From contig CBDFHE010000010.1 of assembly GCA_965247455.1 (NCBI GenBank), forward strand, positions 4,392 through 68,391: 64,000 nucleotides of DNA, read 5' to 3'. The position numbers and the translations under genes were made by a program. The stretch is from Candidatus Acidiferrales bacterium (GTDB taxonomy: Bacteria; Acidobacteriota; Terriglobia; Acidiferrales; 2-02-FULL-67-57). The notes under the pieces are model-generated. The model was not told where the DNA came from, did no database searches, and was given only the letters and a program-made list of their open reading frames with translations. This document shows positions 14,110 through 15,259 of the stretch, in pieces; the first letter of the stretch is position 1; each line of letters begins with the position of its first letter.

Positions 14110-15259
14110 TGCTCTCGCGCCACAAAGTTATTCCGCTGATTGTTCTTGCGGTCGGCGTTGCCTGGGCGCTGCCCGCCGCAGCGGTCGAGATTACCCACCC
14201 CCCCCCCCCCCCCCCCCCCCCCCCCGGTCGACCCCCCCCCCCCCCCCCCCCCACCCCCCACCCCCCCCCCCCGGCCAGGTGCGCAACGCCACTACCGGCC
14301 AACCGGTGGCGGGCGCTTCTGTGAATCTGTTGGCCCTGCGCGGCATGATGGTCCCCATCCGCGAAACCCAGACCAATCAGGAAGGCCGATACCGCTTCGT
14401 GGTGGCCGCCAACCCCAGCGAGCGCTTCCTGGTGCAGGTGCCGTTCCAGGGCGTGAACTACCACGCTCCCGCCTTTGCCACCGGCGAGCACATCACGGCC
14501 GACGTGGAGGTCTATGAATCCGGCGCCGCGCCCAGTGACATCAGCGTCGAGGGCCACACCATCTTTCTCGAACCCCACAGCGACCACATGCGGGTGACCG
14601 AGTCCTACCCTGTCCACAACCACAGCCGACCGCTGCGCACCTTCGCGCCCGACGGCAGCAGCTTCACCTTTCCTGTCCCCGCCACCGTGGGCGACCTGCA
14701 AGTTTCCGTCCGCACCGTCAGCGGCGTGCCGTTGCGCCAGCAGCCCCAACCGGCTGAGACAGAAAACCGCTTCGCCATTGACTACGCCTTTCGCCCGGGA
14801 GAATCAGAGGTGCAAGTCAGCTACGCCGTGCCCCTGAGCGGCACCACGCTCGACCTGCTCCTGCCGCTGACAGTGGAGACCAAAACCCGGCACATTGCCG
14901 TGCCCGCTTCCGGTGTTCAGCTCAGCGGCGCCGGCCTGGAGGAAATCGAGCAGACGCGCTTCCCGCAGGTGCGTTTATTTTCGGTGGCCGACACCGCGCC
15001 GGGCAAACTCGCCCTGCGATTGCAGGTGGACCCGGCGGCGCTGCCAGCGGCGGCGAGCTCCCCCCAACCCTCCGGCGCGGCGGCGGCGGAAAGCGCGGTC
15101 ACCATCGTCCCCCACCCCATTAACCGTGTGCAGTCCTACATTGTGGGATTGTGCTTGTTTGTTCTGCTGCTGGGCCTGTATTATTTGAATTCGCTCCAGC
15201 CCGCTCGAAACACAAACAATGACTCTACCCGCCAGCCCCCGCCAACCAGCGCCGACTAG
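14109..15259 (+). pseudogene. signal peptide / poly-proline / CarboxypepD_reg-like domain membrane protein, out of frame across the poly-C tract
   Basis: Frame of ATG 14109: MLSRHKVIPLIVLAVGVAWALPAAAVEITH-P9-GR-P7-TPH-P4..., then a stop at 14322-14324. The frame of ORF 14279-15259 is open back into the tract and reads ...PPPGQVRNATTGQPVAGASVNLLALRGMMVPIRETQTNQEGRYRF (carboxypeptidase-regulatory-like fold start) and ends with a TM helix (YIVGLCLFVLLLGLYYL). One extra C, or two fewer, joins the two parts. Confidence 0.6.
14198..14272. repeat. interrupted homopolymer: C28 (14198-14225) GGTCGA C21 (14232-14252) A C6 (14254-14259) A C12 (14261-14272)
   Basis: Counted base by base from the numbered sequence lines. 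Confidence 0.95.

Follow-up and report, generated by a model that had tools for sequence, protein, structure and literature searches.

The homopolymeric contingency loci of Neisseria, Campylobacter, Helicobacter and Bordetella are one described parallel to the locus analyzed here: in those loci, as in this one, a C or G run near the 5′ end of a gene sets its reading frame, and the known homopolymeric switches are uninterrupted runs of about 7–16 nt. Two other kinds of event also resemble it. Filler insertions left by end-joining or template switching share with it a short insert, no target-site duplication and a copy of adjacent sequence, and templated filler insertions are known to occur at end-joining repair junctions. 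Poly-G and poly-C artefacts of assembly share tens of C or G bases with sporadic others, absence from relatives and a disrupted ORF. Literature searches for the maximum length of phase-variable tracts and for documented internal poly-C/G assembly artefacts each gave nothing specific.

The present analysis concerns an interrupted poly-C tract in a 64-kb stretch of DNA, hereafter the window, whose nearest named relatives are Acidobacteriota/Terriglobia ('Acidiferrales') MAGs. Set against its relatives, the tract is a non-native low-complexity insertion, unique to this record and out of frame. How it came to be there is a matter of graded probability, and each of the explanations is taken up below with the evidence that bears on it.

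Sequence of the tract and the gene it interrupts

The tract reads C28-GGTCGA-C21-A-C6-A-C12 at 14198–14272, matching exactly the letters and coordinates given in a preliminary description of this DNA. It lies in a ccm operon, as had also been recognized, with CcmE, CcmF and CcmH encoded upstream and a CcmA-position ABC ATPase, CcmB and CcmC encoded downstream. The features of the operon and of the tract are as follows.

10728–11219, + strand: ccmE (PF03100)
11226–13256, + strand: ccmF (PF01578 and PF16327)
13240–13713, + strand: ccmH (PF03918)
13717–14109, + strand: small (130-aa) membrane protein ending in a zinc ribbon (PF13240)
14109–14195, + strand: 5′ part of the interrupted gene, a signal-peptide-like N-terminus MLSRHKVIPLIVLAVGVAWALPAAA followed by VEIT; N-terminus identical to that of homologue P0060
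14183–14188, + strand: native GGTCGA of the left flank, the V-E codons of AVEIT
14196–14272, + strand: 77-nt insertion CA-C28-GGTCGA-C21-A-C6-A-C12, delimited by alignment with relatives; the ORF is restored on its removal
14198–14225, + strand: C28 run, read directly from the sequence
14226–14231, + strand: GGTCGA interruption, the same hexamer as the flank copy 43 nt upstream
14232–14272, + strand: C21-A-C6-A-C12 block (C21 at 14232–14252, A at 14253, C6 at 14254–14259, A at 14260, C12 at 14261–14272)
14273–15259, + strand: 3′ part of the interrupted gene (GQVRNATTG... through the stop codon), read in the −1 frame relative to the 5′ part
14322–14324, + strand: premature stop codon in the frame opened at ATG 14109, giving a product of 71 aa as written
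15219–15959, + strand: ccmA-like ABC ATPase, whose first 41 nt are shared with the 3′ end of the interrupted gene, an overlap also present in the related locus L002
15963–16640, + strand: ccmB (Pfam)
16650–17342, + strand: ccmC (Pfam)
17354–17506, + strand: ccmD-sized ORF, assigned to ccmD by position and size only

The boundary of the insertion slides by 2 nt owing to the flanking CC. Junction k-mers that tell the two forms apart are GAGATTACCGGCCAGGTG for sequence without the tract and GATTACCCACCCCCCCC and CCCCCCCCGGCCAGGTG for sequence with it.

Nothing else in the window approaches this composition. C accounts for 68 of the 75 nt of the tract, compared with 40 in the runner-up 75-nt stretch of the 64-kb window, and the longest homopolymer elsewhere in the window is at most 7 nt. 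With a C frequency of 0.317, the numbers of C12, C21 and C28 runs expected in a window of 64 kb are 0.045, 1.5e-6 and 4.7e-10, so the run lengths lie far beyond chance expectation. The four G-runs described for the minus strand are likewise present and G-quadruplexes are predicted for them, a prediction that is trivial because it follows from the composition of the G-rich strand alone.

As written, the frame opened by ATG 14109 passes through the tract as MLSRHKVIPLIVLAVGVAWALPAAAVEIT-H-P9-GR-P7-TPH-P4-ARCATPLPANRWRALL (...VEIT-...-ARCAT...) and ends at 14322–14324; both the P9-GR-P7-TPH-P4 coding and this stop had been called correctly. The domain frame, consisting of the downstream 326 codons, is likewise open through the tract and into GQVRNATTG..., and proline dominates all three frames across it. 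The length of the insert, 77 = 3 × 25 + 2 nt, leaves the gene broken and agrees with the earlier calculation that one more C or two fewer would rejoin the frames; the version with one more C encodes a continuous product of 383 aa. The tract occupies codons 30–55 of the ORF starting at 14109, and length changes there would alter the frame. If the tract is taken at face value, the product is a 71-aa peptide, possibly with loss of translational coupling to ccmA. The sole in-frame start for the remainder would then be GTG 14279, which lies within the conserved GQVRN and has no evident Shine-Dalgarno sequence; such a product would have no signal peptide, so that the ectodomain would stay unexported.

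The 3′ part of the gene encodes a CarboxypepD_reg-like beta sandwich and a second all-beta region, with a membrane helix at the C-terminus. The gene belongs to a conserved acidobacterial family (P0001–P0065) of proteins of about 357 aa, with a signal peptide, an all-beta ectodomain and a C-terminal membrane helix. No NCBIfam model matches the family and PF13620 matches it weakly. There are no cysteines in the mature part, and a motif at 131–135 is conserved (PHSDH in P0001), with P131 and H135 nearly invariant. A fold search of the PDB returned generic beta-sandwich matches with a TM of about 0.3 (M1-aminopeptidase N-domains, OST subunits). The place of the family between the zinc-ribbon protein and ccmA is fixed in L002 and the window, and it is possible that the family is an accessory factor of cytochrome c maturation. 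The zinc-ribbon protein at 13717–14109 has an N-terminal membrane segment weakly like the N-domain of CcmI (TIGR03142, 23 bits, below cut-off), and a CcmI-N-like segment together with a zinc ribbon is an unusual combination for a ccm operon. One guess is that the family protein might take the role of the periplasmic chaperone portion of CcmI.

Comparison with relatives

A search for homologues with the downstream 326 aa gave 70 matches, mostly of 342–375 aa. The closest two, P0060 (96%) and P0001 (92%), both read AAAVEITGQVRNATTG, in which the two flanks of the window are joined directly. The same AAAVEITGQVRNATTG occurs in all eight N-terminus-bearing sequences that were read, i.e. seven from the cluster of P0001 together with P0060, and VEITGQV was found in five N-terminus-bearing members of that cluster. 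The cluster comprises 64 members at an identity of at least 90%, and the 15 members listed are all of 357 aa or fewer.

At the nucleotide level, a frameshift screen of the window by GC3 was too noisy, and the window was compared directly with relatives. Five independent related loci were available: two from ENA (L001 and L002), one from the GTDB species representative, MAG B25T1B10 (L003), and two metagenome contigs (L004 and L005). Identity to the window is 99.3% over about 4.3 kb for L001 and 93–95% for the other four. All five carry ATTACC followed without interruption by GGCCA, all reading ATTACCGGCCA, and each of the five BLAST alignments stops at window position 14195 and picks up again at 14271. 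The preliminary description had suggested comparing tract length in related strains, and the outcome is that five of five loci have only CC at the site and no tract. Nearly all differences between L001 and the window are substitutions and single-base indels in 2–5-nt runs, with the indels on the side of L001; this error pattern, together with the '1x' in the contig name, makes L001 resemble one long read, left uncorrected, from a near-identical strain.

Deletion of 14196–14272 gives an intact 357-aa ORF, equal in length to P0001, the full-length relative closest to it, and 91% identical to that protein. Not one flanking base has been lost or duplicated at the insertion site, and the downstream 326 codons are undamaged and 92–96% identical to those of relatives. 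A chimeric join is disfavored because excision of the 77 nt brings the two flanks together perfectly, and the earlier argument that coherent flanks oppose such a join was correct. Over about 8 kb the tract is the sole structural difference from relatives; the window has a single indel of its own there, in frame, of 3 nt and near 15075–15087, and comparison with four short-read-type relatives revealed no window-specific 1-nt indels. The consensus around the tract is clean, so that the assembly is not generally poor, and this is compatible with an artefact and with a real insertion alike. Most probably the native sequence would read ...GTC GAG ATT ACC GGC CAG GTG... and encode a 357-aa periplasmic membrane-anchored beta-sandwich protein.

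The window also contains several further features. An IS1380-family transposase gene (9135–10470, + strand) adjoins ccmE and is split over three reading frames, with positions 1–102, 114–346 and 360–418 of the IS1380 profile in separate frames; each break looks as if a short run had gained a base (GGGG at 9529–9532, and AAA near 10171–10173), and either the IS copy has decayed or the consensus of this repeated element is wrong. There is a break of synteny at 10701–10707, where the synteny of L001, L003 and L005 with the window ends exactly on that side of ccmE, and for this reason the IS1380 copy looks strain-specific. REP-like palindromic intergenic repeats (CACACCGAGCCC...GGGCTCGGTGTG) lie at 1847–1995, 2862–2995, 32827–32964, 36329–36395 and 61401–61492, with arms up to 97–100% complementary; in L001 a REP-like copy (2475–2604) directly upstream of ccmE takes the position that the IS element occupies in the window. 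Tandem 13–14-nt repeats of the GGTGAACCCTTCAGGGAGAACC type occur at 40053–40114 and 35106–35194, about 5 kb apart. An ORF of 828 aa (41562–44048, + strand) encodes a repeat-domain protein; a 74-nt unit occurs in it five times, with three of the copies at 204-nt spacing (...NLV.NDTN...DIF...).

The proposed contingency switch and proline linker

The first of three readings offered in the preliminary description was a slipped-strand contingency locus, in which the length of the C-run would switch the protein on and off with a polar effect on the overlapping ccmA. The tract does lie early in the coding region and is currently one base out of frame, the interrupted gene does overlap ccmA by 41 nt, and C-runs of such length are expected to slip at a high rate. 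This reading was not upheld by the relatives, since no tract of any length is present at the site in the five loci or in 60 homologues, and not even a short C-run was found there in the five loci, one of them 99.3% identical to the window. As the relatives have only CC at the site, there is no ancestral tract able to vary. Homopolymers of 9 nt or more are absent from L001–L005, and the finding that no second homopolymer longer than 7 nt exists in the 64 kb indicates that, within the window, there is no repertoire of such loci. It is also against a switch that the tract is interrupted, that even an in-frame insert interrupts a beta strand, and that the host operon serves housekeeping cytochrome c maturation and is not a variable surface system. 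We regard a contingency locus as highly improbable.

The more general idea that a physically real tract is kept as a hypermutable element in a natural acidobacterial population is very improbable too. If it were true, no C-homopolymer array known from within a bacterial coding region would come near this one in length, expression of the periplasmic ccm-operon protein and coupling to ccmA would hinge on slippage during replication or transcription or on ribosomal −1 slippage over CCC, and a strong chromosomal G-quadruplex/i-motif would form a natural roadblock inside the operon.

The second reading was that of a real poly-proline linker with its length mis-called by one base. It could draw on the fact that all three frames of the tract are mostly proline and that addition of one C gives a continuous protein of 383 aa, but the family has no linker at this site, and its nearest members have 357 aa without a proline segment. 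None of about 70 homologue matches carries a proline-rich segment between EIT and GQV. In a family alignment of 62 members, 60 of which cover the insertion site, the A-x-A of the signal peptide leads straight into (A/V)(E/D)(I/V)xG(R/Q)VxNxTTG with no gap in 60 of 60, and none of these 60 has a run of three or more prolines in its first 90 residues. P0001 as modelled by AlphaFold2 (pLDDT 86.4, pTM 0.73) has a helix at 3–19, which is the signal peptide, a strand at 26–35 (AVEITGQVRN), an all-beta ectodomain that ends near residue 282 and a membrane helix at 316–336. In this model the insert falls between T30 and G31, in the middle of the first ectodomain strand and not between domains. The in-frame version adds 26 residues (H-P9-GR-P7-TPH-P4) to strand 26–35, and from this position it would be predicted to disrupt the fold instead of lengthening a tether.

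Codon usage also argues against a linker. CCC supplies 20 of the 21 proline codons in the tract, whereas in neighboring genes the proportions are 43% CCC and 41% CCG (P about 5e-8), and native PPP and PPPP runs in the window have mixed codons. Such near-uniform use of CCC indicates that the tract is not evolved coding sequence. With no gap or proline run in 60 homologues, a site inside a strand and the CCC bias, we give next to no credence to a poly-proline linker, and the two readings, contingency locus and evolved linker, are not supported and between them retain very little probability.

Origin of the insertion

The second half of the tract with the following flank, GGTCGA-C21-A-C6-A-C12-GGCCAGG, parallels the native GGTCGA-G-A-TT-A-CC-GGCCAGG, with C-runs in the place of G, TT and CC. 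A C-run-replaced copy of local sequence is suggestive only: GGTCGA occurs 61 times in the window on both strands, and the chance of finding a copy within about 50 nt is estimated at 2–3%, so that the echo does not amount to proof. A technical or repair process would produce a garbled local echo of GGTCGA more readily than selection would. Several other sources for the tract were tried and rejected. When it was considered as a C-overwritten in-register copy from elsewhere in the window, the best matches were at chance level. For a mobile element or other templated insertion there is neither a duplication of the flank nor a donor copy in register elsewhere in the window. C8-GGTCGA-C8, considered as a possible recurrent technical motif (for instance from an adapter carrying a SalI-like site), is absent from IMG/VR.

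One explanation is a real, private insertion that recently inactivated the gene and has no function. By this account a break or stalled fork would have been repaired by template-independent or reiterative C:G synthesis together with a copy of GGTCGA, as end-joining or template-switch filler, and the tract would be unstable and prone to form G-quadruplexes. Such an event would be consistent with true sequence on both sides and a flank neither lost nor duplicated, with the clean consensus around the tract, with an undamaged downstream ORF if it was very recent, and with a GGTCGA echo that resembles templated filler at repair junctions; it would also suit a geometry that a simple poly-G tail artefact does not predict. 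However, it would have knocked out a gene conserved in this operon in at least 65 relatives, the 99.3% identical L001 has no tract, there is no second assembly with it, and homopolymers so long should be too unstable to yield one clean consensus. We know of no bacterial repair pathway that adds homopolymer runs of 20–28 nt, and to our knowledge no filler-insertion process of this kind is on record for Acidobacteriota. If the insertion were physically present in the strain, it would leave an identical record, and we consider this origin the main rival to an artefact, though unlikely.

The tract is probably a technical artefact at the read or assembly level, where we infer both the technical cause and the step responsible. 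The insert would never have been part of the genome of the organism, having been introduced at the level of reads or of consensus and assembly along a path that the assembler retained. Candidate sources include a stall in long-read base-calling or a signal-loss artefact, template-independent, reiterative synthesis of poly(dG).poly(dC) during library preparation, and an assembler path through low-complexity k-mers. In keeping with an artefact, the tract is missing from a near-identical genome (L001, 99.3%), the 71-aa stub, from one 100.7-kb NCBI/ENA contig, stands as a singleton in a collection of about 15 billion proteins, and taking the tract out gives back a normal gene, the 357-aa ORF, with no other change.

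An artefact was the third reading of the preliminary description, and as a class it is the best supported, but the mechanism named there, poly-G calls from two-colour chemistry, does not fit the geometry. Two-colour poly-G tails give a flank followed by a G-run or, after reverse complementing, a C-run followed by a flank, whereas this tract is internal, all-C and bordered by native sequence on both sides. Two poly-G-tail ends joined together would be predicted to place a G-run beside a C-run, as is seen in the IMG/VR loci L038 and L041. The unlike geometry suggests that a different technical step would be needed. Decoding of the tract from local sequence by flow-space (454/Ion Torrent) or two-colour channel loss was also considered by reasoning, and no consistent mapping was arrived at.

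Long interrupted poly-C/G tracts are recurrent in public assemblies, overwhelmingly where the assembly stops. The pattern C20-N1-8-C20 matched at least 120 contigs in IMG/VR. Among the listed matches that are whole-contig loci, the tract lies no more than 140 nt from a contig end in 35 of 37, the other two (L014 and L025) having it more than 1 kb inside; over all listed matches, 22 tract segments from 19 loci lie more than 300 nt from a sequence end and 115 lie nearer. The deeper-lying tracts include both all-C tracts with sporadic other bases and composites of G-run and C-run (L038, L041). Internal tracts of 40–116 nt are present in the viral contigs L014 (10053–10100), L025 (1033–1100), L033, L069, L078, L110 (8788–8903) and others; odd single bases are frequent in them, and some (L028 and L067) have a proline-rich coding context. 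A systematic audit of these internal tracts, as a class of artefact, would be worthwhile.

The significance of the tract lies mainly in data quality. An insert in a deposited contig turns a 357-aa protein into a 71-aa stub with an uncalled remainder, and the stub now stands in protein databases as a singleton 'poly-proline' protein. For biology there is little consequence, the underlying gene being an ordinary, intact-looking member of a conserved uncharacterized family of acidobacterial cytochrome c maturation operons.

When the locus is set beside the known systems, each resemblance has its counterpart in a difference. In the contingency loci of Neisseria, Campylobacter, Helicobacter and Bordetella the tract is conserved across strains and polymorphic in length, whereas here it is missing from all relatives; those loci are many per genome and sit in surface or modification genes, whereas this one is single in 64 kb and sits in a ccm operon; and Neisseria-type tracts are uninterrupted and of about 7–16 nt, whereas the runs here have 28 + 21 + 6 + 12 nt and are interrupted. 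Known filler insertions usually consist of mixed or templated sequence and range in length from a few nt to a few tens, in contrast to homopolymer runs of 20–28 nt. Poly-G and poly-C tracts in public assemblies are mostly at contig ends or combine a G-run with a C-run, whereas the present tract is internal and all-C, with exact flanks and a copy of the neighboring hexamer.
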